In this document: positions 38,036 through 53,635 of the stretch, one piece after another
Position numbering within the stretch: the stretch's first letter is position 1
How the letters are laid out: each line of letters begins with the position of its first letter
From: Bacteroidota bacterium
GTDB taxonomy: Bacteria > Bacteroidota > Bacteroidia > UKL13-3
Length of the DNA stretch: 64,000 nt
Assembly: GCA_051715425.1 (NCBI GenBank)
Contig: JBPXJS010000011.1
Coordinates: forward strand, 33,581 to 97,580
Direction of reading: 5' to 3'
Made by a program: the position numbers and the translations under genes
The notes under the pieces: generated by a model
Database searches by the model: none
The model's input: the letters and a program-made list of their open reading frames with translations, nothing else
Told to the model about the DNA's origin: nothing

Positions 38036-38749
38036 TTATTTTAAATACTCTTCAGTAGTGTATGCCCTATTGATATATATGTTTTTGTTTACATCAATCA
38101 CAAACTCGCAGAGGCCACGGTGAGATTTATTGGCAGGGTTCCAGTCGTAGGTGTATCCCAGTTGGGTCCATGGGTATTGGCTAAACAGGCCACAGGCATA
38201 ATAGCGGGAAATACGTGTATCGTTTACCCATTTAATATAGGCGGTATCAAGAGAGTCTTGCGCGCTAAAACAAATATTACAGCTTTTGTCGTTTATTTCT
38301 TTATCAGGGCAGGGGCGGAAAAGATCAGCCGGTTTTACCCAAAATTCTATAAAATAATTATAAGTTGCATTGGGAGGTAAGCCTAATAATTGCTTCAGAC
38401 GCAAATCCACATTTTTTGGTTTCTCTTTTTTAATCCGCTCTTTTAATTCGGGAGCGGTAGTAACCCAAATTTGCCAGCCTTGTGTATTATATAATCCGGA
38501 GTCGCCATAGAAATTGGATTTTTTCCAGGTAACCACTAGCACATAATCTTCACCGTTAATGGTTTTCCAGGTCAGGTTTTTGTTATCGCGGGTAATGGCA
38601 ATCAGGTTGGTATCCCTTGCATCTGTTTCCGGATACATGGATTGTTTAATGGCATGGCGGTAAGGTTTTTCAAATTTGGATTGGGCAAAAGATGGCAGGC
38701 ATAGCGCAAATGCCATCAGCATAAAAAGTGCGGATTTCATGGTTTTCAT
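38036..38749 (-). CDS. Hypothetical secreted protein
   Basis: The ATG at 38749 gives the signal peptide MKTMKSALFMLMAFALCLPSFAQ. I recognise no family. Confidence 0.5.
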   Translation of the reverse strand: MKTMKSALFMLMAFALCLPSFAQSKFEKPYRHAIKQSMYPETDARDTNLIAITRDNKNLTWKTINGEDYVLVVTWKKSNFYGDSGLYNTQGWQIWVTTAPELKERIKKEKPKNVDLRLKQLLGLPPNATYNYFIEFWVKPADLFRPCPDKEINDKSCNICFSAQDSLDTAYIKWVNDTRISRYYACGLFSQYPWTQLGYTYDWNPANKSHRGLCEFVIDVNKNIYINRAYTTEEYLK

Positions 38750-39032
38750 AGGGGGTTGGTGGTTGTATCCCGAAGGTAAATAAAGCAAGATAATGCTGTA
38801 CAACACTTTTTAAAATACCACAAAACAGTTTCATAATCACCCGAATATTTTTGGAATAAATTATTCGTGAGGAGGAGTTTGTGAAATTTAGCAATGAAAT
38901 ATTAGTAACAGGTACTGATAGTACTCATTCAAATAAAAAAGAGGGGCATTTGCAAGGGATAAAAACTACTTGTTATTATTAAACAAAGATAATGATACAT
39001 CATCATTGCGGTAGTTGTATAAAGGAGTGCAA

Positions 39033-39290
39033 TTAAATTACGCTGTTTCTGGTTTTTGCCCTTTCCTTTTTCAACTCCAGTATGGATATTACATCTTTCT
39101 CAAAGAGTTCTGAAACACTTATATGATAGTAGGCTGCAATCTTTTCAATGTAACTAAGTTTGGGATCTGTATTAGAATTTTCAATTCTTGAATATGTACT
39201 CTGGTTGATATCTATAATTTGAGCAAACCCTTCCTGTGAAATATTTTCTATGAGTCTAAGGTGTTTTATTTTATTACTTAAGTTGCTCAT
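39033..39290 (-). CDS. XRE family helix-turn-helix transcriptional regulator
   Basis: 85 aa. IKHLRLIENISQEGFAQIIDINQSTYSRIENSNTDPKLSYIEKIAAYYHISVSELF is a classic HTH_3 domain. Confidence 0.85.
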   Translation of the reverse strand: MSNLSNKIKHLRLIENISQEGFAQIIDINQSTYSRIENSNTDPKLSYIEKIAAYYHISVSELFEKDVISILELKKERAKTRNSVI

Positions 39291-39335
39291 GGTTGTGGTT
39301 TATTATCATTACAGCTAATTTAAATAGTAATTATC

Positions 39336-39381
39336 GCATAACAACATAAATATTTGCATAATATATTAGTTTTTTGCATAA
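39336..39381. promoter_or_regulatory. Three GCATAA boxes spaced exactly 20 bp apart in the divergent XRE/LamG intergenic region (candidate operator array or promoter elements)
   Basis: GCATAA occurs at 39336, 39356 and 39376. Copies 1 and 3 share GCATAACAA; copies 2 and 3 share TTTGCATAA. Confidence 0.4.
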
Positions 39382-39453
39382 CAAATATGTTGCTGTGTTT
39401 ATGAATTTTGTTTGGTCGATATTATTAACAATTACACCATCAATCTAAACACT

Positions 39454-41187
39454 ATGAAAAATTTCAAACATTCATTTTCAATCCTCGCTTTTTATTTTAT
39501 TTTTAATCTGGGTGTTTCTCAAGCACAAATCATTAATGGGTTACAAGCTTATTATCCGCTTAACGGCAATGCTAATGATTATAGTGGTAATGGTAACCAT
39601 GGAACACTTCAAAACACACCGTCTGTAGCTTCAGATAAATATGGAGGAACAACGCATGCTTATGCCTTTGATCCTGGATCAAGTGAATATATAAGATGCG
39701 GTGATATCCTTGATAATTTATTTTCACCACCAAGTTCGGCTGCTCAATTTACCATTACAGGATGGGCAAAAAGTGATTCATGGGCATCGGTTCAAGGGGG
39801 TAATATTATTGTAGGGAAGTCGCCAGGGGGATTAGGTTCAACTTATCAATGGCTTATCAACCATGATGACGATGGAAAAATAAAAGGAGTTGTATGTACG
39901 GATGGAAGTTCAGCAGAATTTGTTGAAAGGGAGAGTGGTACAGTCAGCACTGGTGTCTGGTTTCATTTCGCACTTATTTTTGATGGGTCCCAGGCAAATG
40001 ATAATGATAAAGTGCAACTCTATATTGATGCTGTTGCTGGTTCAGTTAGCAGAACCGGGATCAATCCTCTGGGGAATAAAACAGTTAATACCAATCAGGA
40101 AATAACCATTGGTGGAGGACATGATCAGGGAAATCCTGCAAGTCCGAATAATCTTTATGATGGAACAATAGATGATATTAGAATTTATGACAGGGTGCTA
40201 ACACATGATGAAGTAAAAACACTTGCTGATTTTGATCTTGTTGTATATTACCCTTTTGATATGGATGCTAACAATTATAGTGGAATTGGAGGTTACCACT
40301 GCACACCACAAAATAGTCCAATTCATGATACAGACCGGTTAGGAGATTCTCTGTGGGCTTATGAATTTGACCCAGGATCAAGTCAATACTTAAGGTGTGG
40401 AGATATTCTTGATAGCATATTTTCCCCTTCATCTGACACGGCACAATTTACAGTTACCGGCTGGGCAAAAAGTAATTCCTGGGCTCCCTTTCAGGGTGGA
40501 AATGTAATTATAGGAAAAGTTCCCGGAGGTAATGGAACCTCATACCAATGGTTTATTAATCATGATAATGATGGTCGGATAAAAGGAGTTATTTGCTCAA
40601 CAGGTAACTGTTCAGATTATATTGAACTGAAAAGTGCAGTAGTTGGGACAAGTCAGTGGTTCCAGTTTGCACTTGTATTTGATGGTTATCAATCAACTCC
40701 TTCTGATAGGATAAAACTTTATGTTGACGGAGTAGCCGGGACCAGCTCAAGAAGCAATGGCACCTTGGGAACAAAAACAGCCAATACCAATCAGGAAATA
40801 ACTGTTGCCAGCGGTCACAATCAAAATAGTCCGGGTACACCAAACAATCTTTATGATGGTCATGTTGACGAAATTAGAATTTTTAGCAAGCCACTTACAC
40901 TTGATCAAGCTTATATCCTCAGAAAGAGTATTCCTACGGGTTTAAATAGTGTTAAGTCTAATAATAGCGGTGTTTTCCCTAACCCATCTCAGTCTGGTAT
41001 CTTTACTATTTCCAATGGTAATCGCTCCGTATTTGAGGTGAGGAGCATAACCGGATGCAGTATTATGTCTGGCAATATTAATGCAGAAAATTATAAACTG
41101 GATTTGACTGGGTATTCTAAAGGCGTTTATCTTTTGAGTATTAAGTCCGGATCCCACACAGATATTGTAAAGTTGGTTATCCAATAA
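39454..41187 (+). CDS. Tandem LamG (concanavalin A-like lectin, Laminin_G_3-type) domain protein with T9SS C-terminal sorting domain
   Basis: The ATG at 39454 gives the signal peptide MKNFKHSFSILAFYFIFNLGVSQAQ. Two collinear modules of about 230 aa follow (YYPLNGNANDYSGNGNHG...LYDGTIDDIRIYDRVLT and YYPFDMDANNYSGIGGYH...LYDGHVDEIRIFSKPLT). The CTD reads VFPNPSQSGIFTI...GVYLLSIKSGSHTDIVKLVIQ. Confidence 0.8.
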   Translation: MKNFKHSFSILAFYFIFNLGVSQAQIINGLQAYYPLNGNANDYSGNGNHGTLQNTPSVASDKYGGTTHAYAFDPGSSEYIRCGDILDNLFSPPSSAAQFTITGWAKSDSWASVQGGNIIVGKSPGGLGSTYQWLINHDDDGKIKGVVCTDGSSAEFVERESGTVSTGVWFHFALIFDGSQANDNDKVQLYIDAVAGSVSRTGINPLGNKTVNTNQEITIGGGHDQGNPASPNNLYDGTIDDIRIYDRVLTHDEVKTLADFDLVVYYPFDMDANNYSGIGGYHCTPQNSPIHDTDRLGDSLWAYEFDPGSSQYLRCGDILDSIFSPSSDTAQFTVTGWAKSNSWAPFQGGNVIIGKVPGGNGTSYQWFINHDNDGRIKGVICSTGNCSDYIELKSAVVGTSQWFQFALVFDGYQSTPSDRIKLYVDGVAGTSSRSNGTLGTKTANTNQEITVASGHNQNSPGTPNNLYDGHVDEIRIFSKPLTLDQAYILRKSIPTGLNSVKSNNSGVFPNPSQSGIFTISNGNRSVFEVRSITGCSIMSGNINAENYKLDLTGYSKGVYLLSIKSGSHTDIVKLVIQ

Positions 41188-41202
41188 AGGTTATAAGTTA
41201 TT

Positions 41203-41256
41203 ATTATTCTATAAGATGTATGCAAGCCTTAACTTGCATACATCTTATAGAATAAT
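41203..41256. repeat. 24-bp perfect inverted repeat with a 6-nt loop between convergent genes; probable bidirectional transcription stop
   Basis: Arm 1 (41203-41226) is attattctataagatgtatgcaag. Arm 2 (41233-41256) is its exact reverse complement. The loop is ccttaa. Arm 2 encodes the last 8 codons of the 97-aa ORF. There is no flanking U-tract on either strand. Confidence 0.9.
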
Positions 41257-41522
41257 GCCACTCCCCAATCAGATTTAGAATATTTAATCCATTGGTTTAT
41301 TCTGTGATTTTTCTTAAAAATAATGCTTAGATAAATTAGTCTAAAAAGAAAATAGGCAAGAGCTAAAATGTAAAGGAATATAAAAAAACCGAATGTTATG
41401 TTTAGTAGAATTATGAGTATTACAAAGAAAAATGTTCCAAAAACCAATATAAATCCAGAGATGATAAATTGTATCAAAGCTTTTCTCATGATACCTAAAT
41501 CCATATTATGGGAGAATTTCAA
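41229..41522 (-). CDS. Small hydrophobic (about 2 TM) membrane protein, last gene of the four-gene operon
   Basis: The product is 86-97 aa depending on the start: TTG at 41522 overlapping the upstream stop, or ATG at 41504 or 41489. It has very hydrophobic F/I/L-rich helices and a basic C-terminal tail. I recognise no family. Confidence 0.5.
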   Translation of the reverse strand: MKFSHNMDLGIMRKALIQFIISGFILVFGTFFFVILIILLNITFGFFIFLYILALAYFLFRLIYLSIIFKKNHRINQWIKYSKSDWGVALFYKMYAS

Positions 41523-42199
41523 TAACTTATGGTATAGGAATTAACCTCGGGTTCGAGCTTGGAGAGGGTCACCGGAATGGTTTCATGTTTAGTAAATTTA
41601 GCCAAAAGATTTTGATAGCCTTTCGCAATGACAAAGTATGTTGACTCATTACCACTGAAGTAAGGAATTCGTACAAGTTTCGTGTTATTTATATCCATTT
41701 GAGCTTTTGTAAAGGTAAAAAAGGGATTACGATAGGTATAATCATCATAATATAATGAAGCTGTTGGTGCGCATAAATAGACAGTATCGCTTTCATTTAA
41801 AGGGTTACCTGTCATAGTTATGAGAATTGTCGTAGAGTCGGGTATGTTGAAGGTTCGGTTTATATTCTGATTGATTGGCAGACCTGCTATGGTATTTGGC
41901 GATAAATTGGGACTGTGGATGGATGCACTGGTCATCTCGTCATTGCAGTCGTAGGTGATTTTAAAGTACCCATTATTATCGGTTCGGTTTTTCCCTAAGT
42001 CTTTCACATTTGAACCCGTGGAGAACAAACTATTGTTTTTGCCTGCAACCGCTTCAATAGTGATCCCTGATCTCGGAGTGTTTTTAGTGCCATTCCAAAT
42101 AATGCCTTCTATGGTATATGATCCCTCACAATCGCTTTTACAATTACTTAGGGTAGAGTATAATATTAATATGCAGGCATAAAGTGCTAACCTATTCAT
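41519..42199 (-). CDS. Hypothetical lipoprotein with a CarboxypepD_reg-like N-terminal motif
   Basis: Signal peptide plus lipobox-like LSNC. The segment YTIEGIIWNG...GITIEAV...TDNNGYFKITY resembles a carboxypeptidase-regulatory/Big-like beta-sandwich. The gene starts 6 nt after the 972-aa gene. Confidence 0.5.
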   Translation of the reverse strand: MNRLALYACILILYSTLSNCKSDCEGSYTIEGIIWNGTKNTPRSGITIEAVAGKNNSLFSTGSNVKDLGKNRTDNNGYFKITYDCNDEMTSASIHSPNLSPNTIAGLPINQNINRTFNIPDSTTILITMTGNPLNESDTVYLCAPTASLYYDDYTYRNPFFTFTKAQMDINNTKLVRIPYFSGNESTYFVIAKGYQNLLAKFTKHETIPVTLSKLEPEVNSYTISY

Positions 42200-42205
42200 A
42201 CGTGT

Positions 42206-45124
42206 TTAATTAGAGATGATAATCCGTCTTATATAGTTCTGGGTGGATGTATGTATCTTAAAGATGTATATCCCAGACTTTAACTTAGAAATATCATACG
42301 TTAAAGATATAACGTTTTCATTCATATTATAACCGGTATCTGATAAAATGATATCTTTTCCATGTAAGGAGAAAACTTGTACAATTGGCTTTTCTGGTTT
42401 ATTGGCATGAATCCTCACAGTTAGATTGGTTTGCGCAGGATTTGGAAATAGGAATACTTTTTCAGATATATTGTTATCATTTATGAATGTATCCTGTGTT
42501 GAATTGGAACTTTTTATGCTATGAGTGAAAATTTCATCCATTTGTTTAATATTACCCCTGATATTTTCTTCAGAATCGTAATGACAAAAAGGAATAGCTG
42601 AAATAACCGCATGGAACCGGGAATTATAGGTGGAGGAGAATCCTGGTTTTAGAATAATCTCTTTGCCTGATCTAAAGGTTACATAACTCCACTCAGGTGG
42701 CATGGAAATATCAAGATCAATTTGATTTATAGAAAACCCGTTCTCTTTGCTTAAAGGCTTATTATAGTCCAGACTTAAACTAGAGGGGTAAGTGTATTCA
42801 TGTGTTGTTCCTTGATCATACAACCATGAGCCCGCCTCAATAATAAACCTTGATTCAAAATACGCTCTTCTGGATAAATTATAGTTATCCAGTTTCATAT
42901 GATCAGGAGCTATTTCTTTAGGTTTAATGAATAGGTTTGCGAGATAGGGTTGATCTGGTTTGGCTCCCCATTGGTTATGTGTCCAGTTGCCCGGGCTGCC
43001 TATAAAAACATGTGCACCTGTTGAGTTTACTATTTGGCTAACCGGCATTTGTGTAAAATTGATATGTTCAATCATATTGCCGTTTTTCGGTCCCCCATAA
43101 TCAAGGGCACTTGATGTTCTTACAAAGCTTGGAGATTGGTTTTCTGCAACAATGCCTGTAAACGCACTTAAAGGACCAATTGATATACTCGGAAATAAAG
43201 AACCTGAACGTACAAAAGAGACATCTCCACCAGAAATATCATCAATAGGTTTTGTATTTAATGCATAGTCGTCTCCCAGATAAACAAGGGAATGAATGCA
43301 ACCACGCACCGCACTCAAAAATGTGGAGGGATGCCAAAGGGCCACCATAATGGATCGAAAACAACCTATTATTTTTAAGGATTTAAATGCAGAAGGCAAA
43401 TGGTTAGTTTGCCCAAAACCATCTGGTGTTGATCGGATATCAACGCTCCAATCCCAGATGGGTAAATATATTTTCTTAAATATTTTTACTTTAATGGTTG
43501 ATCCTACTCCAAATAACAAATCTCCCGGTTTTGTTGGCCCTCCACCAAACCTATCCTGCGGTGTTCCATCAAGCATACCATTACTGATCAATACCACACG
43601 GCATTGGGTAGGATATCCATTTGTTGCAGGATTCAGCAAATACAGTTCATTGAGGAATTGCTGCCTTTCCGGGGTAATAGGATATTCCCCTAAAATCGTT
43701 TTCTGTGAAATATGATAAACCAGCATTTGTTTAACTCCTGTTTGATCTAAAAGTTCGGTTACAATTAAACCACTGTGAGTTAATTCGTCTAGCAGAAAGG
43801 TGGTTAAGCGCAAGGGTGGTGGTATCAGGTTTACCAGTGTATTAACAAGGTTCTGTATTCCTATAGACACATTTGCTCCCTGATGAGGAGAATCCAATGT
43901 AACCAATAAGCGGCAGTTGTGTGATGCTCCGGCCGGTGTTTCCATTGAAGTAAGGGCATACCTGCTGATTATCCCGCCTATACTGGATCCTAATATGACA
44001 ATCTGATTCGGATTGCCCTGAGCTTTCATATCGTTATTTATTTTGGTAATCAGGTTCTTTAAATTGTTGGCATTATCAGCCAAACTAATCCGGCTGTTTT
44101 TCCAGTCAACCACATAAATGCGGTATCCGTAATTAATCAGTTCTGCCAGATTACCCTTTTCAAAGAACTCGTCATATAGTTCCAATTCGTTTTTCATTTC
44201 CGTCAGGTCAATTCCACTCACATATATCAGGGGTTTATATTGCAGATGCTCATCACACTCATTGTAAATGGCAATATTCATTCCTGAGAAATCCATTGAA
44301 GAGCTGGGTTGTTTGGGTTCAAGATCATCAGTTGTTATTTCAATAAAGGAACTACACTCACGCAGAACGTTCCCGTCTTCAAATATTCTGAATTTAATCT
44401 CATACCGGCCTTTTTTAGGGTATTCAATTTCAGTATCGGTAAGATTGGATGTATTAATGGTTTGCCATCCGCTTCCGAAATTTACCTGAAATTCATTTAC
44501 CGGAATTTGTTTATAGAAGCAACTATATTGTTGATCATAGAACGAAAATCTTGGACTAAACGTAAAAATAATTTTTCTGTAGTGGTAATAATCCCTTAAA
44601 GGTGCGCACTTAAAAAAAGTAAGATTGTATTCGCCCGGAGTTAATTCTTTATACGGCTCTTTGCTTCTTCCTGAAACATCCCAAATGGAGTTATCGTCCC
44701 AGTCGAAATATTGTCCCTGAACATCAAATGCATCATCTGTAAATTCGTAATAACTAAAATCCATTATTCCGATGGCAATTTTTCTGGAGCTGTTATAAAG
44801 GTCTTCAGCTTCAGTTTTTACCTGCCGGGTAAGAGGAAGTAAACCTTTTGTGTAGGATCTGAAATAAAACTCCTGGTGTTGTGTGAACCAGTCGAACGAT
44901 ACTCCGGGGTCTTTTATACCTATGGTGCCGTTATAATCACTTGATATTTCGGTAGCCATATCCCATAGGAAGTTTGATTGACATGATATTTTATTGCCAG
45001 GTTTGTTTAATCCGGAGAACAATTGGTGCAGTTCATCATTCATGTCGGGCAATCCCTGTGATTTGACACCGAAGGGCAGTGCTAGGCTAATACACAAAAC
45101 AAAACCCAAGCTGATTACTTTCAT
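42206..45124 (-). CDS. Large T9SS-sorted protein with a central lipase-like alpha/beta-hydrolase core (GxSxG)
   Basis: 972 aa with a signal peptide. The nucleophile-elbow motif VILGSSIGGIISRYAL places the Ser381 codon at 43984-43982. It is followed by LLVTLDSPHQGA, a PGAP1/lipase class-2-like motif. The C-terminus (LFPNPAQTNLTVRIH...GIYIFKIHTSTQNYIRRIIISN) is a T9SS CTD. The first 290 aa or so and residues 520-880 match no family I recognise. Confidence 0.65.
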   Translation of the reverse strand: MKVISLGFVLCISLALPFGVKSQGLPDMNDELHQLFSGLNKPGNKISCQSNFLWDMATEISSDYNGTIGIKDPGVSFDWFTQHQEFYFRSYTKGLLPLTRQVKTEAEDLYNSSRKIAIGIMDFSYYEFTDDAFDVQGQYFDWDDNSIWDVSGRSKEPYKELTPGEYNLTFFKCAPLRDYYHYRKIIFTFSPRFSFYDQQYSCFYKQIPVNEFQVNFGSGWQTINTSNLTDTEIEYPKKGRYEIKFRIFEDGNVLRECSSFIEITTDDLEPKQPSSSMDFSGMNIAIYNECDEHLQYKPLIYVSGIDLTEMKNELELYDEFFEKGNLAELINYGYRIYVVDWKNSRISLADNANNLKNLITKINNDMKAQGNPNQIVILGSSIGGIISRYALTSMETPAGASHNCRLLVTLDSPHQGANVSIGIQNLVNTLVNLIPPPLRLTTFLLDELTHSGLIVTELLDQTGVKQMLVYHISQKTILGEYPITPERQQFLNELYLLNPATNGYPTQCRVVLISNGMLDGTPQDRFGGGPTKPGDLLFGVGSTIKVKIFKKIYLPIWDWSVDIRSTPDGFGQTNHLPSAFKSLKIIGCFRSIMVALWHPSTFLSAVRGCIHSLVYLGDDYALNTKPIDDISGGDVSFVRSGSLFPSISIGPLSAFTGIVAENQSPSFVRTSSALDYGGPKNGNMIEHINFTQMPVSQIVNSTGAHVFIGSPGNWTHNQWGAKPDQPYLANLFIKPKEIAPDHMKLDNYNLSRRAYFESRFIIEAGSWLYDQGTTHEYTYPSSLSLDYNKPLSKENGFSINQIDLDISMPPEWSYVTFRSGKEIILKPGFSSTYNSRFHAVISAIPFCHYDSEENIRGNIKQMDEIFTHSIKSSNSTQDTFINDNNISEKVFLFPNPAQTNLTVRIHANKPEKPIVQVFSLHGKDIILSDTGYNMNENVISLTYDISKLKSGIYIFKIHTSTQNYIRRIIISN

Positions 45125-45128
45125 CGGA

Positions 45129-45620
45129 TTATTTTTTGGATGTTTTTAATGCCTCTATTTCTTTATGAAGTCTGATGATGTATAACGTAAGCTCTTCTAT
45201 CTTTTCCATCATCAGTTGTTGCGTTTCGCCAACGGAAAGCCCGTTTTCTTTTATATAAGCCGCATTGGGTACACCAGGAAGATGTTTGTTGGCGTATATG
45301 TAATTTTCAAGTTCGGTAAAGGAGAGCAGCACATAGTCATCTTCAAATACATAATCAGCCCATGCTTCATTATTCACATAAATTTCACGGGCTCTTATTT
45401 TACCGTTCACCGATAATTTAAAATCCTGAGAACTACCCGATGAAGCAGAAGTGATCCAAACCCGGCCTGTGGTGTCAATCATAAACAGGGAAGAATGGTG
45501 ATGTTTGATCTCCATTGGAAGCGAAGCCTTGCTTGTTTCAATTACCCATCCCTGAGCGTTTGCATTTAAATAGGTAATGGTTACTATAACCAAACCAAGA
45601 AGTAGTTTTAAATATTTCAT
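45129..45620 (-). CDS. Small secreted protein with a recurrent Bacteroidota C-terminal helical module (tail-fibre-like C-terminus)
   Basis: Signal peptide MKYLKLLLGLVIVTITYLNANAQ. The C-terminal part reads KLSVNGKIRAREIYVNNEAWADYVFEDDYVLLSFTELENYIYANKHLPGVPNA...GLSVGETQQLMMEKIEELTLYIIRLHKEIEALK. The gene ends 4 nt before the 972-aa gene starts. Confidence 0.55.
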   Translation of the reverse strand: MKYLKLLLGLVIVTITYLNANAQGWVIETSKASLPMEIKHHHSSLFMIDTTGRVWITSASSGSSQDFKLSVNGKIRAREIYVNNEAWADYVFEDDYVLLSFTELENYIYANKHLPGVPNAAYIKENGLSVGETQQLMMEKIEELTLYIIRLHKEIEALKTSKK

Positions 45621-45701
45621 ACCATCGAATTTTGTAACACGAATTTTTTATCTTCGACTTGTCTTTAAAAGGACTATTTTGACCTAAAAAGCGGCAAGCC
45701 T

Positions 45702-46103
45702 ATGAACTACTCTGAAAAACTGGTTATGTTAAGAAAGCTTAGAAGCCTTACGCAGCAAGAGTTAGCGGATGCTATTCCGGTTTCTTTAAAAACATTGCAA
45801 CGTATTGAAAATGGAAGTGCTCAACTAACACAATTGATGGAAGAACGAATAGTAAATGCACTTAAACTTACAAAAGAAGAGTTTGAACGATTTGAAGTGA
45901 CCGAGGTATTTAATGGATTAAAAAAAGGTACTAACAAAGTGAAAAAAAAGGGCAATATTGATATTTCACCCGAATACATTTCTTATCTCGAATCAACTTT
46001 TCTTGAGGTAAACCGGGAAAATATTTTTTTAAAACTCAAGCTCCAGTTTGCACAGGAGGAAACTTCTGATAAAGACGGCAAAACTAATTTGTTTCATTCG
46101 TGA
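45702..46103 (+). CDS. XRE-type HTH protein with a C-terminal extension
   Basis: LVMLRKLRSLTQQELADAIPVSLKTLQRIENGSAQ is an HTH_3 domain. The stop overlaps the aroK GTG start (GTGA). Confidence 0.7.
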   Translation: MNYSEKLVMLRKLRSLTQQELADAIPVSLKTLQRIENGSAQLTQLMEERIVNALKLTKEEFERFEVTEVFNGLKKGTNKVKKKGNIDISPEYISYLESTFLEVNRENIFLKLKLQFAQEETSDKDGKTNLFHS

Positions 46104-46609
46104 ACATCTACCTCACCGGCATGATGGGTGCAGGTAAAAGTACCCTTGGAAAAAAACTGGCCAAAAAGCTGGGATATGATTTCATTGATTTGGATGAATT
46201 AATAGAAAAGAGAGAAGGATTGCCCCTGGCTGAAATATTTAATTTCAGGGGAGAACATTATTTCAGAACACTGGAGGCAGATATATTAAAGGAAACGGTT
46301 TTATTAAATGATACGGTAATAGCAACCGGAGGAGGCACCCCTTGTTATTTTGATAACCTGAACTGGATGAATAAGCATGGAAAAACCATCTATTTAAGGG
46401 GAAATATTACCCTGCTGGCCCAGCGTTTACTGCCCGGAATGTCCAAAAGACCCTTGCTTGCAGGACTAAAACCGGATGAATTGCCCGGTTTTTTGTCGGT
46501 TTTAATGGCCGCCCGCGAGCCGTTTTATACCCAGGCACACATCATTGCCGACTTACCCGTAAAAAACCTTATTTCCCTTGCCAGACAAGCAGTTGAGGCC
46601 ATTGTTTAA
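46100..46609 (+). CDS. aroK: Shikimate kinase
   Basis: 169 aa. P-loop sequence NIYLTGMMGAGKSTLGKKLAKKLGYDFIDLDELIE, and a GGG motif (IATGGGTP). Confidence 0.88.
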   Translation: MNIYLTGMMGAGKSTLGKKLAKKLGYDFIDLDELIEKREGLPLAEIFNFRGEHYFRTLEADILKETVLLNDTVIATGGGTPCYFDNLNWMNKHGKTIYLRGNITLLAQRLLPGMSKRPLLAGLKPDELPGFLSVLMAAREPFYTQAHIIADLPVKNLISLARQAVEAIV

Positions 46610-46707
46610 ACAACATTTTTATATACAAACTGGGGCAAACCCCTGTTAATGTTGAAAACCTGTGAAAATCTATTTTTCAAAAAAGTACCTGAACCCACTG
46701 ATATCAC

Positions 46708-46737
46708 TTGATTTCTTCATTTCCTTTCCTATGTTTG
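46708..46737 (+). promoter_or_regulatory. Candidate Bacteroidota promoter for the HU gene (TTG -33-like, TATGTTTG -7)
   Basis: TATGTTTG at 46730-46737 matches TAnnTTTG. TTG at 46708-46710 lies 19 nt upstream. The start codon is at 46765. Confidence 0.45.
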
Positions 46738-46764
46738 TTACCGTAAAATCAAACCTTAATTATT

Positions 46765-47037
46765 ATGAACAAGTCAGATTTAATCGACAAAATGGCCGGA
46801 GATGCCAAACTCACTAAAGTACAAGCTGCTGCTGCATTAGATTCATTTATGGCTGCAACACAAGGCGCATTGAAAAAAGGCGACAAACTTATCCTTGTTG
46901 GATTCGGTACTTTCTCAGTAACTAAACGTGCTGCACGTAAAGGACGTAACCCACAAACAGGAAAAGTGATTAACATCCCTGCTAAAAAAGTTGTTAAATT
47001 TAAAGCTGGTGCCGGTTTACAAGGCAAAATCAAGTAA
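46765..47037 (+). CDS. HU family DNA-binding protein
   Basis: 90 aa. MNKSDLIDKMA...GFGTFSVTKRAARKGRNPQTGKVINIPAKKVVKFKAG is canonical HU/IHF. Confidence 0.92.
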   Translation: MNKSDLIDKMAGDAKLTKVQAAAALDSFMAATQGALKKGDKLILVGFGTFSVTKRAARKGRNPQTGKVINIPAKKVVKFKAGAGLQGKIK

Positions 47038-47058
47038 TTGATAAAAAGTATTGTGAAA

Positions 47059-47087
47059 TAAAAAACCCCGGCATGCCGGGGTTTTTT
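47059..47087. terminator. Bidirectional rho-independent terminator between HU (+) and the DEAD-box helicase (-)
   Basis: AAAAAAA-CCCCGGCATGCCGGGG-TTTTTT. A perfect 16-nt GC-rich palindrome is flanked by an A-run and a T-run. Confidence 0.85.
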
Positions 47088-47107
47088 GTTGTATAAAGTT
47101 GATATAA

Positions 47108-48946
47108 TTATCCTTTTCTTCTGGAGAAACCTCCACGGTCGCCACTTCCACCTTCTCTTCTTCCTCCTCCACCATAAGAACGGTTTCCTGATCCACCTCT
47201 GTCTCCACCGTATGAGCGGCCTCCACCACCTTCACGTCTTCCTCCACCGCCACCATATCCTCCACCACCGGAGCGTCTTCTTCCACCTCCACCGTATCCG
47301 CCTTCATCACCACCACGACCTTTAGAGTAACTTTTATCCTGCTGTTCACCGGAAACTTCAACACGCACATTTCTTCCGTGATAATTGCTTCCATGCAAAC
47401 CTTTGGTTACCTGATCTACTACTTCCGGGTCAACATTAATAAAAGAGTATACTCCTTTTACATCAATGCGCAACAATTGTTTGCCGGTAATACCGGTAAG
47501 TTCCAATACCAGGTCTTTCAGTGATCCGGTATTTAAACCATCTTTAGAACCAATGCTCACAAACAATCTTGCTCCGCGGCCTTTGGCATCTCCTTCGGCA
47601 CGGCTCGAATCCCTGTCCTGAACATTCAGATCAGGTGCATTCATATAATCCGCACTAAATCTTCTTAACTCAAGGGAAAGCATTTTTTTCAATACTTCTT
47701 CCTTATCCAGCAGCAATAATGGCTTCAGGTGTTTCTCTACCACATCATCAAAAAATGTTTCTTCAATTTCTGTAGAGTTAATGGTATCAATAAAAGCTAG
47801 TAGTTTTTTATCACGAACCTCCATTGCTGATGGAACGAGTACGCGCTTAAATTTGATATTGGCTAATTTTTCAATTTCACGCAGGCGGTAAAATTCTCTT
47901 ACATTTAATAAGGTAAGTGAGGTACCTGTTTTTCCTGCGCGGGCTGTACGTCCGCTGCGGTGTGTGTAATTTTCAATATCATCAGGCAAATGGAAATGGA
48001 TAACGTGGGTTAATCCGCTTACATCAATACCGCGTGCAGCCACGTCTGTTGCCAATAATATTTTAATGGCATGATGGCGGAAACGGTTCATTACCTTTTC
48101 GCGTTGCGACTGGCTTAAATCACCATGCAGGCAATCTGCATTGTAGCCATCACGTATCAGCTTATCGCTTATATCCTGAGTCTCATGTTTGGTTGTACAA
48201 AAGATAATGCCATAGAAGTGATCACTGGTGTAATCAAGAATACGTTTCATGGCAGCATATTTATCCTTTGCGTGAACTACTGCGTACTCATGTGCAATAT
48301 TTACGTTTGATGAGTTGGCTTTACCAACAGATACCTCTACAGGATCTTTCATGTAGCGGTCGGCAATTTGCCTGATCTCTTTTGGCATGGTAGCACTGAA
48401 AAGGCATACGCGTTTGCTGTCGGGTGTTACAGACAGGATGTTTTCAATATCATCCCTGAAACCCATGTTCAGCATTTCATCTGCTTCATCAAGCACCACA
48501 TACTTAATATTTTTAATGTTTACAGCTTTACGCTCCATTAAATCCATCAGGCGGCCAGGGGTGGCTACCACAATATGTGCTCCCTTGCGCAGTTCATCCA
48601 TCTGGCCAAAAATGCTGGCTCCACCATAAACGGCAACCACACGCACATTTTTCATATGTGTGCTGTAACTGCTCAGGTCGCGTGAAATCTGCATGCACAA
48701 CTCGCGGGTTGGGCAAATAATAAGGGTTTGTGTGCTTTTTGCACTAAAATCTGTGAGCTGCAAAATGGGTAAACCAAATGCTGCTGTTTTTCCGGTACCG
48801 GTTTGTGCTAATCCTAAAATGTCTCTTTCAGTTTCTAAAAAAACAGGAATGGACTTCTCCTGAATAGGCGTGGGAGTTTCAAATCCCAGTTCCGAGATGG
48901 CGCTTAAGACGGACGCGTCCAAGCCCAGGTCGTTAAATGTTGTCAA
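47108..48946 (-). CDS. DEAD-box ATP-dependent RNA helicase (DeaD/CsdA-like) with DbpA-type domain and a C-terminal RGG/GY-rich low-complexity tail
   Basis: Q-motif, AQTGTGKT, DEAD (VLDEADEM), SAT, HRSGRTARAG. The last 80 aa or so read GGYGGGGRRRSGGGGYGGGGGRREGGGGRSYGGDRGG... Confidence 0.9.
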   Translation of the reverse strand: MTTFNDLGLDASVLSAISELGFETPTPIQEKSIPVFLETERDILGLAQTGTGKTAAFGLPILQLTDFSAKSTQTLIICPTRELCMQISRDLSSYSTHMKNVRVVAVYGGASIFGQMDELRKGAHIVVATPGRLMDLMERKAVNIKNIKYVVLDEADEMLNMGFRDDIENILSVTPDSKRVCLFSATMPKEIRQIADRYMKDPVEVSVGKANSSNVNIAHEYAVVHAKDKYAAMKRILDYTSDHFYGIIFCTTKHETQDISDKLIRDGYNADCLHGDLSQSQREKVMNRFRHHAIKILLATDVAARGIDVSGLTHVIHFHLPDDIENYTHRSGRTARAGKTGTSLTLLNVREFYRLREIEKLANIKFKRVLVPSAMEVRDKKLLAFIDTINSTEIEETFFDDVVEKHLKPLLLLDKEEVLKKMLSLELRRFSADYMNAPDLNVQDRDSSRAEGDAKGRGARLFVSIGSKDGLNTGSLKDLVLELTGITGKQLLRIDVKGVYSFINVDPEVVDQVTKGLHGSNYHGRNVRVEVSGEQQDKSYSKGRGGDEGGYGGGGRRRSGGGGYGGGGGRREGGGGRSYGGDRGGSGNRSYGGGGRREGGSGDRGGFSRRKG

Positions 48947-49061: not shown

Positions 49062-52000
49062 TTACTCATACCTGATCAGCTTGTGAATAATGCTCTTTCC
49101 CCCGTCTGTACTGATATGTACTGTATATATTCCTACCTGTTTGGTGGCAAAAGCCGAAGCTAAATTTATTTCTTCATCACTGCACGATATATGCTTTATT
49201 TCTTTTCCGGTGAGGTCGGTAATTCGAATCTGAAGCATCAATTTATCCGGATTGGTTAAAACAACCTCTGCATTACTTGGATTTGGATAAAGCACAATAC
49301 CGTTTGTCTTATCTTCTTCTTTTTCGAAAACAAGAACCTCAGAATATTCATACGAACCGTTTTTATCTGCTATACGCAAACGAAAATAGTTTTTTCCATG
49401 GCGGATATGAATACCGGTACTTTTGTATTCTAAAAGGGAAGAGGAGTTGCCGGCTGCTTTAATGGTTTCCATTTCTTCAAAGTGTTTTCCATCATTGCTT
49501 TTTTCTACAATAAAGTGAGAGGTATTTACCTCAGATGATGTTTGCCAGTGCAGATAAACCTCATTTTGCTTTTGGTAACCCGCAAATTGTACCAGGGTTA
49601 CAGGTAAAGAACCACCACCGGGTGAAATCACCATATAAAACCTGAACTCACCGTAGGAAAGCGGGTTTGCAGTGGTGGTATTAAAAGGGTATTGGTATCC
49701 ATTGGTAATATCTGTGGTTGTATTCAGGTATTTGTCTACAAGCGTTGCGGTAGTTCCACTGCTCCAGTTTCCGTTGGCAAAGTTTAAGGAAAAGGATTTG
49801 TTTGTTGCCGGAAGTCTCATACAAAGAGCAACGGTATCTGTTGTTGAGGGAATACCTATTCCGTTAAAAACATACCTGGTGGTATCGCCCGGAACAAAAG
49901 ATGCAATGGTTTGATTGCCATAGCCGGCTTTGGTCATATCAAACAGGATATTAAATCCTTTGGTGGCTTGCTGATGCAGGTATACAACTGTTTCATCAAG
50001 CCTGCCTGTATCTGCAAGTGTGATCTTTACATTATTATTATTGCTCACACCGGATTTGCCAAAAAAACCTTTATGGCTATCATCCCTTAATTTGTATTTT
50101 TCTTCAAAAACCAGGTTGGTATTGCCGTTGGCCAAAGCAAAAAATCCCTGACCAGATTCTATCACAGGAGAACCGCCATTAACAGATCCACCTACCGGAT
50201 GCCAGTTGGAGTATGAAGCTGATTTGGGGTTGTATACATAAGTTCCCGGTGAAATATTGCTGCCACGCGCTGCCACCCAATCAGGATGATTCCAGTCAAT
50301 ATCCGATGCGTAGGGATTACCCACGAGGTTAAACCCTTTTCCTTTTGAGTTGGTACGGGTGAGCGGAACAGTGAGTTGTCCGGTATGAAGTGTACCTTTT
50401 GCCCTGATGGTAACACTGCTTGTATTGTTTAGTAAAAGAGTGAGCAGGTCGCAACCATCGCTCCTTTTTCCTCTTACCAATACATTATATCCTTTGCCTG
50501 GTTCGAGTAAAGTATTTGATGTGCCTGATGGTGTTTCCCAACGTCCATTAGTTTCGCTGTACATCTGAAGCGATGGACTGTTAAAATCTGTGGCGTCAAA
50601 TCCGTTGCTGTGTTTGTTAAAAGAAGGGCAGGGGCTTCCACCTGATCCCTGTCCGGTAATATGTATACTATCCTGCCAGCTGGCTTCTATACTCACTCCT
50701 GAAACGGGTGCGGCCAGAAACCGCCACTTGCGAAGATTCTCTCCGCCCTGAATAAAACGTTCAACAGTTACGGCACCTGATATATAAGTACCCGAGGGCA
50801 TTTCAGCTATACGCGCTGTACCTATAGAATCTGAAACAAGGGTTAAAAATCCGTTACTAACTACACCACCGGTTTGTATTTCCAGTTCATCGAGTATGTA
50901 TGTTTCACTGCTCAATGTAATACCGGCCGCATTATTCACATGCATGCTGGTAAAGGTATCGCCTCTTATCACCTGCGCGGCAGAACCATCCAACGCAATA
51001 TCCGATGTTATGGTAGTTAGTTCACCGCTTAAGGTGTTGCTGCCTGCCAAAAATATTTTTGAATGATTAAAAAGTAAATTTCCCGTTCCGGATATGCTGC
51101 CATTGATATCTACTGTATCACAGTTCAGATGAATGGAAATAATTCCGGTATCAATATTATTATTCAGGATAAAATTTCCCTGTACAACAAATTTAAGATC
51201 GTTAATGGTTATTGTTCTTGGTGATAAGCCGGTATTAACAGTTAAATTTCCATAAGGTATGCCATTCCTGATTGTTTGCGAAACATGGCCGGCACCGTAA
51301 ATAAGGGTTGATGTGGCATGCAGCTGAATATGATTATCCGTGAAGCCCGCAGGAAATTGAATGGGATTATTTTCTCCGTTATTTCCTATTACCACCGTTA
51401 CACCAGATCCAACGGTAAATAGCCCGCTGTCTGTTCCGGTAATTGCAGCTGCAGCTCCTGTTAGCGTGAGGCGACCGGCATTCAGTGTAAAGTTTTTATC
51501 TATACGCACAGAACCATTCACTGTTAAATTTCCTGCCCCGCTTTTTATGAGGTGATAGAATCGGATATTTTTAGCTGTTTGAGAGCCTGCATTATTATAT
51601 TCAACCGTATTGCCGGGTGCAGAAGCGGTTAACACACCCATAGCAGATAATAAACTTCCGTTCACTTTTAAAGTGCTGTATGAATCATTGATAAAGGTGC
51701 CGTTGGCATTGTTGGCTGTAAGGTTACCTGTGATCTGAATGGAAGTTTTGTTGGTGAGGTTTATGGCTCCGGAAATAACCATATTACCACCAAAAGTGAT
51801 CGGGGTATTTGATACAATCTCCTGATGGTTGGTGGAGAAAGTATAAGCACCTGTTCCCGGGGTAAATATGCCCTGATTGCTAATTCCGTTTCGGATGGTT
51901 ACGGGATTATTGCTGCTTATTTTATAAGTACCGTTAACGGTGAGTTTGCCTAATATGATAGTGCCTGCCACCAGATCGTCATACAAGGTACCATTCACCA

Positions 52001-53423: not shown

Positions 53424-53635
53424 AAACATAGGAAATAGTGCAGTACAAAGATATAGAACAAAAAAGCATAAAAACAAAATAAACGGAATAATAATGAAAT
53501 AAACAGCTGTATTGTGGTACGAAATAATTAAACCAGAATGAGAAATAAATGTGACGTAACTTTCAGGTAATCAGTAAAAAAGTATTTGAAGGATTTTAAA
53601 TTTAGCCTGCTAAAACTACCCCATAAAAAAAATGG

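Follow-up and report, generated by a model that had tools for sequence, protein, structure and literature searches.

Could four tightly packed genes in a Bacteroidota genome encode a lipase that is exported through the T9SS together with proteins that keep it in check? The question was raised by an earlier note on the window analyzed here, a 64,000-nucleotide stretch of contig JBPXJS010000011.1, which read four minus-strand open reading frames as an effector-immunity operon. The frames were all re-found, at 45129-45620, 42206-45124, 41519-42199 and 41229-41522, with the same tight packing (a 4-nt gap, a 6-nt gap and a 4-nt overlap). As delimited by sequence comparison, the conserved core of this locus is three genes, for a 163-aa secreted fibre-like protein, a 972-aa hydrolase and a lipoprotein. 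Across the phylum, similarly judged, the core is two genes, the hydrolase and the small lipoprotein(s). Sec signals are predicted on all three conserved products, of the signal-peptidase-I type with Gln at +1 on the 163-aa protein and the hydrolase, and with a lipobox on the 226-aa product.

The 972-aa product of gene 2 (42206..45124, minus strand) is T9SS cargo because it carries a type A C-terminal sorting domain (CTD) at residues 892-970 (42215..42451, minus strand), which is matched by Por_Secre_tail PF18962 (E=2.8e-11, 44 bits against a cut-off of 27) and by TIGR04183 (E=3.8e-11, 42.8 bits against 23). Its N-terminus is hydrophobic and Gln23, at the predicted +1 position, is invariant in 12 relatives, as expected of a Sec signal peptide; both export signals that had been proposed for this protein thus hold. 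It is one of three T9SS-CTD proteins in the 64-kb window (591, 972, and 1471 aa), and a PDB profile search returned only matches to the CTD (such as 8glk, E=4e-10) and marginal PGAP1 matches. In the ORF translation, the alignments and an AF2 model, the signal peptide is followed by a helical and beta-sandwich region (~28-290), an alpha/beta-hydrolase domain (~297-720, modeled with cap helices at 421-497 and a beta-rich insertion at 536-660), a low-confidence region with a GCX_COOH motif (814-841) and the CTD.

The lipase-like GxSxG core ascribed to this protein is likewise borne out. Residues 347-421, and these only, match PGAP1-like PF07819 (43862..44086, minus strand; E=1.2e-8, 35.5 bits against a cut-off of 24.3) and DUF676 PF05057 (E=4.4e-5, 23.5 bits against 20.3). 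The nucleophile elbow G379-S-S381-I-G (Ser381 codon at 43982-43984) is invariant in 27 relatives, S381, G383, and G384 standing unchanged in all 27 aligned sequences, and in the model it joins a strand (375-380) to a helix (382-394). A further conserved motif, D411-S-P-H414-Q-G-A-N, lies inside the same match. D411 is invariant and D628, H716, and H414 are at least 90% conserved, so that the partners of Ser381 in a catalytic triad would be D411 or D628 and H716 or H414, with the model at low pLDDT over 700-720. The 50 best Foldseek matches of the model all have the alpha/beta-hydrolase fold and are mostly esterases and lipases, with esterases, monoacylglycerol lipases, and PhaC at the top. Together, these features point to a putative serine esterase/lipase exported by the T9SS.

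Gene 1 (45129..45620, minus strand) encodes the 163-aa secreted protein, with a signal peptide predicted to be cut before Gln23. Residues ~67-160 represent the C-terminal domain that is conserved in a large family of fibre-like Bacteroidota proteins; 548 homologues were found, some annotated as “tail fiber” or “Peptidase S74 domain.” The family profile matches Bdellovibrio fibre proteins (8ond, E=5e-10) in a GNVGIGT repeat part that is mostly missing from the short 163-aa member. Orthologues lie upstream of the hydrolase gene at six related loci (L001, L002, L003, L009, L014, and L015), and the order 163-aa gene, hydrolase, lipoprotein is kept in relatives at 29-93% identity. The protein could serve as an adaptor or anchor.

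The leader upstream of gene 1 (45621..45701, minus strand) is shared with a divergent XRE gene and, on reading the sequence, is presumed to be the promoter region. The exact Bacteroidota -7 motif TAnnTTTG was not found in it, and a sigma-70-type scan of the same interval stayed at background level and located no promoter. This XRE-family HTH gene (45702..46103, plus strand; HTH_3 E=2.7e-9), which overlaps aroK by 4 nt, adjoins the module only in the window's own lineage, where it is kept beside it at L003, L095, and L096; L009-type relatives lack it and have the module flanked by ctaA/cyoE. The locus was said to lie between two XRE genes. The first is indeed directly adjacent, but the second (39033-39290, minus strand; HTH_3 E=1e-11) is set apart by a plus-strand gene for a protein with two LamG domains (Pfam) and a T9SS CTD (39412-41187). 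The neighbors of the module are housekeeping and T9SS cargo genes; VgrG, PAAR, and Hcp genes were not found near it, an Rfam search of 38500-47200 gave nothing meaningful, and the window's three small proteins had no match in PHROGs.

At the other end, ORF4 (41229..41522, minus strand) was called as a hydrophobic 2-TM protein of 97 aa from a TTG start or 91 aa from an ATG. It has no family match in Pfam/NCBIfam, clusters as a singleton, and among 1.84e9 representative proteins finds itself and one marginal 29-residue match only. No counterpart of it follows the lipoprotein arrays at L002, L009, and L012. Homology with the sister strain (L008) ends at window position 41445, at about codon 26 of ORF4, and beyond this insertion breakpoint the sister strain has a different hydrophobic ORF of 72 aa. 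The singleton status, the lack of homologues and the breakpoint rule ORF4 out as a conserved mini-membrane partner, and the fourth module member that had been proposed is thus lost; ORF4 would be a lineage-specific orphan outside the conserved module, and its status as a gene is doubtful. The perfect hairpin that had been noted here, between convergent genes (41203..41256), was confirmed by folding: its 24-nt arms (41203-41226 and 41233-41256) are 100% complementary around a 6-nt loop, with a folding z of -9.8. It covers the last 8 codons of ORF4, whose stop codon falls inside the loop. The hairpin is probably a bidirectional terminator, with no U-tract after it and no place in the output of a consensus terminator scan. 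BLASTN of the window against the sister locus showed that a 2.57-kb segment (38873..41444) is missing there. This segment holds the second XRE gene, the LamG gene, the hairpin and two-thirds of ORF4, from its 3' end, and it identifies the module's downstream edge as a hot spot for indels.

The lipoprotein itself is more informative. Gene 3 (41519-42199, minus strand) encodes 226 aa beginning with a signal helix that ends in LSN|C20, in agreement with its earlier assignment as a lipoprotein. Its 5' part (41834..42199, minus strand) encodes the lipoprotein signal peptide and a conserved N-terminal beta-sandwich (residues 20-122, up to a YNIPDS junction), and its 3' part (41519..41833, minus strand) a hypervariable C-terminal beta-sandwich (residues 123-226) and the stop codon. 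The AF2 model (pLDDT 77) is nearly all-beta, and the lipoprotein is, as modeled, a constant membrane-proximal domain carrying a hypervariable distal one. Foldseek returned only generic Ig/pilin/adhesin-like structures (TM 0.2-0.34), among them Bacteroides “cell adhesion” proteins and, weakly, the lipid-binding C-domain of an A. fulgidus lipase. In Pfam/NCBIfam at E<=0.1 the sole match was a spurious, sub-threshold one to CypR (E=0.04); the N-domains of relatives bear a weak, sub-threshold likeness to CarboxypepD_reg. We also scored the K-(D/E)2 surface-export signal, following the rule of PMC5080379. It occurs in just 1 of the 13 members of the window's own subfamily, which fits a periplasm-facing partner.

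Is the lipoprotein a regular companion of the hydrolase? In species-representative genomes the hydrolase family counts at least 392 relatives, and we examined the neighbors of 79 species-level loci. Small lipoprotein genes on the same strand and within 3 kb were found at 45/79, at 34 of the 54 with full flanks and at 28 of the 40 that have both full flanks and a detectable hydrolase CTD; the last figure does not differ significantly from that for loci without a detectable CTD (28/40 vs 6/14, Fisher p=0.11). Two unrelated families make up these neighbors, class A on the downstream side of the hydrolase and, in distant relatives, DUF6252 on the upstream side; elsewhere in the flanking DNA of the examined loci these families gave only 1 match. 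A PDB profile search found nothing useful for either the lipoprotein or DUF6252, and we found no mention of DUF6252 in the literature searched. The earlier note had let its proposal depend on conserved neighbors, and the module withstands this check: the lipoprotein is retained, the mini-membrane gene is not. Metagenome contigs were scanned with two profiles, one built from the lipoproteins (alignment A2) and one from the close hydrolases (alignment A5), and gave no confirmed relative. Overall, the enzyme-lipoprotein pairing recurs through the phylum and is apparently undescribed.

Tandem copies are frequent, with 2-4 lipoprotein genes at 21 loci and up to five in metagenome relatives, some of them truncated. 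Within arrays the N-domains are 81-99% identical, against 21-60% for the C-domains of paralogues, and the domains are shuffled at the YNIPDS junction: the C-domain of L014_lp1 is 100% identical to that of L009_lp1, although their N-domains are only 46% identical. The window's single lipoprotein is itself a recombinant of two copies, joining the N-terminus of lp1 to the C-terminus of lp2 of the sister strain, and its 5' part (41834..42199) aligns to both. The hydrolase has a dS of 0.44-0.59 and the lipoprotein one of 0.24, compared to 0.03-0.08 in the flanks, a roughly 3-20-fold elevation. Arrays, truncated copies, domain shuffling, a change of copy number between sister strains and raised dS form a pattern typical of immunity loci. 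We considered whether the hydrolase might also be a polymorphic toxin cassette and rejected this: its identity declines gradually, from 64-67% in the core to 23-32% over the last 160 residues, divergence is evenly spread, and dN/dS of 0.07-0.20 indicates purifying selection. The sharp boundary between conserved and variable parts sits in the lipoprotein.

Such variation, together with the indel hot spot at the module's downstream edge, is also what would be seen if the lipoproteins were variable surface antigens that travel with the hydrolase in a recombination hot spot and have no functional tie to it. We regard this as highly improbable, as two unrelated lipoprotein families occur almost only beside this hydrolase, on the same strand, in many Bacteroidota families, and the gaps of 1-7 nt (6 nt in the window; 1-7 nt at L001, L002, L005, and L009) imply that hydrolase and lipoprotein are co-translated. 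The same coupling, the strictly conserved position of the partner and a constant N-domain that could dock on conserved machinery might instead mark a folding or secretion helper, either a lipase-specific, foldase-like protein or an adaptor for passing the enzyme on to the T9SS or for anchoring it once exported. A helper of this kind is very unlikely, however: the partner matches neither the Lif family nor any other Pfam/NCBIfam family, and a chaperone is not expected to occur as 2-5 hypervariable paralogues or to be gained and lost between sister strains. Type A CTD cargo is not known to require a private partner.

We thus favor, tentatively and at a little short of an even chance, a compact, recombining cassette that encodes a serine esterase/lipase exported by the T9SS and, as its cognate partners, lipoproteins that inhibit it or confer immunity; the module is found at different genomic sites in different lineages, once beside an integrase. 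Most likely, the lipoprotein would bind the enzyme and block it. The hydrolase would fold in the periplasm and exit through the T9SS, and the lipoprotein would remain on the producer's outer membrane, where its variable C-domain could occlude the active site or cap. Blocking the enzyme, in transit or at the surface, would spare the lipids of the producing cell, much as Tli lipoproteins guard against Tle lipases and potempins against KLIKK peptidases, and the extra paralogues of an array might neutralize enzyme variants from neighbors. The target of the enzyme could be other bacteria, a eukaryote or food lipid.

Several observations count against an inhibitor or immunity function. About 40% of the hydrolase relatives have no lipoprotein neighbor, putative surface-export signals are carried by 6/17 distant class A proteins and 8/19 DUF6252 proteins, and the enzyme is a large multi-domain protein of the kind that the T9SS uses for degradative work. 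The generic Ig/pilin/adhesin-like fold could equally belong to a surface stalk or to an inhibitor. These points could suggest nutrient acquisition, with the esterase/lipase freeing fatty acids or esters from the environment or a host and surface lipoproteins binding substrate or product or holding the enzyme; their membrane-distal domains, which are the variable ones, would then be tuned to different ligands or be under phage or predator pressure. PKD-like and GCX_COOH modules are typical of large degradative T9SS cargo, and the two-domain stalk resembles pilins, the Bacteroides adhesion proteins and, distantly, the lipid-binding archaeal domain. We consider this reading the main alternative, if an unlikely one. 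Transporter genes, whether SusC/D, FadL or others, were not found linked to the module, the surface-export signal is mostly missing from the window's own subfamily, and accessory binding modules usually also occur fused to enzymes, whereas there were no fusions in 88 loci and every lipoprotein has its own lipobox. Truncated copies, C-domain swaps and raised dS are also more typical of conflict loci.

In a stronger version of the conflict reading, the hydrolase would be a diffusible or surface-displayed antibacterial lipase and the class A and DUF6252 arrays would confer immunity, with orphan copies directed against the variants of neighbors. This is rather improbable. Conserved pairing, arrays, shuffling and high dS agree with the effector-immunity logic suggested at the outset, but the hydrolase is not cassette-like, no specific similarity to Tle4/Tli4 was found, and the mini-membrane partner is not conserved. 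A role of the T9SS in conflict between bacteria has so far been a hypothesis (PMC7073777), and a 2024 review of T9SS functions mentions neither lipases nor effector-immunity pairs (PMC11205867). Were the antibacterial reading true, it would give the type A CTD its first effector-immunity class, one widespread in Bacteroidota; immunity against non-self enzymes would make it a new weapon class. The outcome is a concrete gene pair that is both widespread and open to testing, in which a T9SS hydrolase of the PGAP1-like kind is linked at the majority of the 79 loci to class A or DUF6252 proteins. Either way, modular, recombination-driven diversification is clearly exemplified by the lipoprotein arrays, with their constant N-domains and variable C-domains.

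Among known systems, the T6SS lipase effector-immunity pairs (Tle1-Tle4 with Tli, such as Tle3-Tli3 of AIEC and Tle4/TplE-Tli4 of P. aeruginosa) likewise have a gene for a GxSxG alpha/beta-hydrolase followed immediately by one for a small beta-rich lipoprotein, and immunity genes at Tle loci often come as tandem paralogues. Tli1 and Tli3 are lipoproteins of the outer membrane, and their genes directly follow tle genes (PMC9860674). The hydrolase also matches the PGAP1-like Pfam family from which Tle4/TplE takes its name. In contrast to Tle proteins, it would be exported by a Sec signal and a type A CTD, with no VgrG, PAAR or Hcp gene nearby, and its partner has two domains, one constant and one variable; as the T9SS does not inject, no route by which the enzyme could enter a target's periplasm is known. 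Neither Tle4 nor Tli4 appeared among PDB profile hits (E<=1 for the hydrolase, E<=10 for the lipoprotein) or the best 50 Foldseek hits of each, and the likeness is one of analogy only. The same holds for LipA-Lif of T2SS lipases, where a secreted lipase has a dedicated membrane-anchored partner encoded immediately downstream. Lif, a steric chaperone, is helical, anchored in the inner membrane and encoded by a single gene copy, whereas the module's partner is a multi-copy, hypervariable beta-sandwich lipoprotein with a lipobox, nearly all-beta in the model.

TANFOR proteins are Bacteroidota polymorphic toxin systems that were proposed to use the T9SS, with a competition role that is hypothesized only (PMC7073777). 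They too form conflict-type loci tied to T9SS substrates, with downstream genes read as immunity. They have a conserved N-terminus, swappable C-terminal toxin domains and no reported CTD, whereas in the module the enzyme is uniform along its length and the modular part is the lipoprotein. The KLIKK peptidases of Tannerella forsythia are T9SS-secreted and each is co-transcribed, across gaps of at most 5 nt, with a small outer-membrane lipoprotein inhibitor that shields the producer's surface; these potempins have conserved leaders and very divergent mature parts, fill one role with several unrelated folds and include “orphan” lipoproteins (PMC9890683). The module shares the close adjacency of T9SS enzyme and small lipoprotein genes (predicted to be co-transcribed in the window). 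It differs in pairing an alpha/beta-hydrolase, not a peptidase, with two-sandwich class A partners downstream (DUF6252 being upstream in distant relatives), whereas potempins are encoded upstream and are single OB or 8-stranded barrels of 98-132 residues for which there is no description of arrays in tandem or of shuffled domains. Enzyme type and partner fold place the module outside the potempin family, and here again we draw an analogy only. T9SS lipase-immunity modules had been called no established class, but KLIKK/potempin already pairs T9SS cargo, there proteases, with lipoprotein inhibitors, and this precedent makes the logic of the module less unprecedented than the earlier note stated. 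If the lipoproteins do inhibit, the potempin principle would extend beyond the proteases of a single oral pathogen and take in lipases throughout the phylum.

The four minus-strand ORFs of the module were recovered as tightly packed as the earlier note had described, with a 4-nt gap between the gene for the 163-aa protein (ORF1, 45129-45620) and that for the 972-aa hydrolase (ORF2, 42206-45124), a 6-nt gap before the 226-aa lipoprotein gene (ORF3, 41519-42199), and a 4-nt overlap of the latter with ORF4 (41229-41522; 97 aa from TTG or 91 aa from ATG). The ORF1, ORF3 and ORF4 products had no curated-family match. Also confirmed was a perfect 24-bp hairpin at the operon end (24-nt arms 41203-41226 and 41233-41256, 6-nt loop), which lies between convergent genes, covers the final eight ORF4 codons, and has a folding energy of -38 kcal/mol vs -13.8 for shuffles (z = -9.8). 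Another structured element, after an HU gene (47019-47120), gave a sub-threshold rimP leader match (43.5 bits; gathering score 47) and is probably a mere terminator hairpin. The proposed location between two XRE genes held on one side only: a divergent plus-strand XRE gene (45702-46103) directly adjoins the module, whereas the minus-strand one (39033-39290, 85 aa; HTH_3, E=1e-11) sits past a plus-strand gene, divergent from it, that encodes two LamG domains and a T9SS CTD (39412-41187). These last two, inside 38873-41444, form a second pair of XRE and T9SS cargo genes beside the module. The adjoining XRE-family gene shares 4 nt with aroK, which encodes shikimate kinase (45702-46609). This unusual pairing is kept in the hydrolase-relative locus L003 and in sister-strain contig L095; contig L096 has the XRE gene beside the module and ends before aroK.

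All three conserved products (ORF1-ORF3) are predicted to be exported, the hydrolase as T9SS cargo with a serine-hydrolase core. As anticipated, it has a T9SS type A sorting domain (residues 892-970; PF18962, E=2.8e-11; TIGR04183, E=3.8e-11), a GCX_COOH motif (814-841) and, at its lipase-like GxSxG core, PGAP1-like and DUF676 alpha/beta-hydrolase matches above curated cut-offs (347-421). When 12 and 27 sequences were aligned, residues N351, S381, G383, G384, D411, P413, H414, G416, G516, D628, S672 and H716 proved invariant or near-invariant. In the AlphaFold2 model (mean pLDDT 63; good for 30-300 and 330-430, poor for 720-888), Ser381 lies between strand 375-380 and helix 382-394, a classical nucleophile elbow, and Foldseek returned esterases, monoacylglycerol lipases and PHA synthases, every one of them an alpha/beta-hydrolase but a remote match. 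Ser381 is thus well supported as the catalytic nucleophile by conservation, strand-Ser-helix placement and structural matches; its putative acid and histidine partners are proposed from conservation alone. Beyond the CTD, a PDB profile search matched the hydrolase to PGAP1 only, and marginally. Full-length family members are few in the indexed protein collection (28 matches, 3 above 45% identity), and a pattern scan that took one genome for each species turned up at least 392 relatives, nearly all in Bacteroidota. The window encodes a third CTD protein (49062-53477, 1471 aa), with no Pfam match besides its sorting domain.

At the predicted signal-peptide cleavage site of the hydrolase, Gln23 never varies, and a Gln23 also follows ANA in the 163-aa protein. 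The latter is one of the shorter proteins in a very large Bacteroidota family (548 matches, with names that include "tail fiber" and "Peptidase S74 domain") with the C-terminal domain pattern W.DYVF..DY.L..L.E.E.YI..NKHLP..P.A...G...GE....L.KIEELTLY.I; in longer members there are GNVGIGT fibre repeats, which match Bdellovibrio fibre proteins of solved structure (8ond, E=5e-10). Its gene is kept only in the window's subfamily.

Among close relatives, the 163-aa homologue is upstream and the lipoprotein homologue downstream of hydrolases 46% (L001) and 51% (L002) identical to the window's, and all three genes remain in order in L015, where the hydrolase is only 29% identical. Lipoprotein paralogues number two in the sister strain (L008, hydrolase 86% identical), at least two in L014 (50%) and five in tandem downstream of the hydrolase in L009 (47%); L012 has three complete copies and part of a fourth where the contig ends. 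The module sits downstream of ctaA/cyoE in L001, L009 and L014, and COX3 genes follow the array in L009, L011, L012 and L013, a different site from the window's. A distant pair (L004, 8535-10301) adjoins a tyrosine integrase gene and an excisionase-like HTH_17 gene and so may be carried by an integrative element. One locus (L062, 2956-10854) has two hydrolase copies, with a class A lipoprotein gene downstream of each.

We then called ORFs at 79 species-representative loci, clustered the neighbours and searched with cluster-derived profiles, which uncovered two unrelated lipoprotein families: class A, the window's own (N-domains weakly CarboxypepD_reg-like), downstream of the hydrolase, and class B, DUF6252 (E=2.5e-8), upstream of more distant hydrolases. 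Co-occurrence was seen at 45 of the 79 loci, which have a same-strand class A or B gene within 3 kb (class A alone at 14, class B alone at 28, both at 3); among the 54 full-flank loci, 34 have one, including 28 of the 40 with a CTD-detectable hydrolase. Two to four copies occur at 21 of the 79 loci. No lipoprotein of either class is fused to a hydrolase, and the flanking DNA available for these loci has a single lipoprotein match elsewhere. Mere co-location of the two genes is unlikely because the association is specific. In L055, L076, L078 and L028, distant hydrolase relatives (at ~8000) have 3-4 tandem DUF6252 lipoprotein genes immediately upstream. Tannerella forsythia ATCC 43037, also a potempin-bearing oral pathogen, encodes a hydrolase relative (L041, 7833-9938) with a same-strand DUF6252 ORF ending 261 nt upstream. 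DUF6252 had no PDB relative and was mentioned by no paper in the literature searched.

The lipoprotein is a predicted lipidated, two-domain partner, its gene tightly coupled to that of the hydrolase, and evidently evolves by domain swapping. Its AlphaFold2 model (pLDDT 77) comprises a signal helix and two beta-sandwich domains, for which Foldseek gave generic Ig, pilin and adhesin-like matches (TM 0.2-0.34) and nothing more specific. A comparison of 14 homologues shows near-invariance over the first ~122 residues and hypervariability in the rest; a domain-wise identity matrix gave 81-99% for N-domains within an array and 21-60% for C-domains. Since the first copies in L014 and L009 have 100% identical C-domains on 46% identical N-domains, the halves evidently recombine at the conserved YNIPDS junction. 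Truncated copies exist (L009_lp5; P0042, 136 aa). The lipoprotein could instead be a foldase for the hydrolase, which is unlikely because of the tandem arrays and hypervariable domains.

Comparison with the sister MAG (GCA_943372105.1, contigs L095 and L008) places both modules at the same genomic site, in flanking DNA of 97.7-98.5% nucleotide identity. The MAG has two lipoproteins; the single one in the window matches lp1 in its signal peptide and N-domain (97% identity) and lp2 in its C-domain (94%), and its N-domain coding stretch aligns to both MAG copies, a chimera bearing the signature of deletion by recombination between repeated N-domain sequences. Flanking housekeeping genes (DEAD helicase, aroK, XRE, 256-aa, MauE/DoxX, DUF1599, FolP) have dS of 0.02-0.08 and dN/dS of 0.01-0.52, as against dS of 0.15 for the 163-aa gene (dN/dS 0.09), 0.24 for the lipoprotein gene (0.22) and 0.44-0.59 for the hydrolase gene (0.07-0.20). 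The hydrolase is under purifying selection, and the excess dS indicates module alleles far older than the divergence of the two strains, suggesting that alleles were exchanged or kept by balancing selection. The flanking DEAD-box helicase (47108-48946) has a long Gly/Arg-rich C-terminal tail, with spurious ORFs overlapping on both strands.

The conserved mini-membrane partner suggested previously was not borne out. The gene calls of the source genome include the 91-aa form of ORF4, which forms a singleton cluster, and a HMMER scan of 1.84 billion representatives returned only itself and one marginal 29-residue match. Sister-strain homology stops ~26 codons in, where a different 72-aa hydrophobic ORF continues; the MAG has 183 bp in place of window positions 38873-41444 (2.57 kb: XRE, LamG-CTD gene, hairpin and 3' two-thirds of ORF4). 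With no such ORF after the arrays of L002, L009 and L012 either, ORF4 was rejected as a conserved module member. It is somewhat surprising for DNA of 34% G+C to have two independent open frames for hydrophobic products at the same place, and ORF4 may therefore encode a small membrane protein specific to this lineage, outside the conserved module.

We propose that the variable lipoprotein domain binds and blocks the hydrolase, which would protect the producer cell; extra paralogues could also guard against neighbours' enzyme variants. The main rival is that the lipoprotein serves as a surface accessory or nutrient-capture factor. Under the K-(D/E)2 surface-export rule (PMC5080379), the signal occurs in 1 of 13 lipoproteins of the window's subfamily, 6 of 17 distant class A and 8 of 19 DUF6252 proteins. 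A role of the T9SS in bacterial competition has only been hypothesised (PMC7073777), the literature searched held no paper tying a T9SS lipase to lipoprotein immunity, and we consider a T9SS antibacterial effector-immunity class unlikely. Membership of the pair in the Tle/Tli family of T6SS lipase effectors and immunity proteins was rejected, with no Tle4 among the PDB profile matches of the hydrolase, as was membership in the potempin or lipase-specific foldase (Lif) families. An inhibitory, protective lipoprotein is supported by analogy. The small outer-membrane lipoproteins Tli1 and Tli3 have their genes downstream of tle lipase genes (PMC9860674). Potempins, outer-membrane lipoproteins as well, are co-transcribed with KLIKK peptidases secreted by the T9SS, which they inhibit, and they shield the surface of the cell; their leaders are conserved and their mature parts 4-14% identical (PMC9890683). 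The pairing is best classed as an enzyme with a dedicated lipoprotein that would act as its inhibitor or immunity protein.
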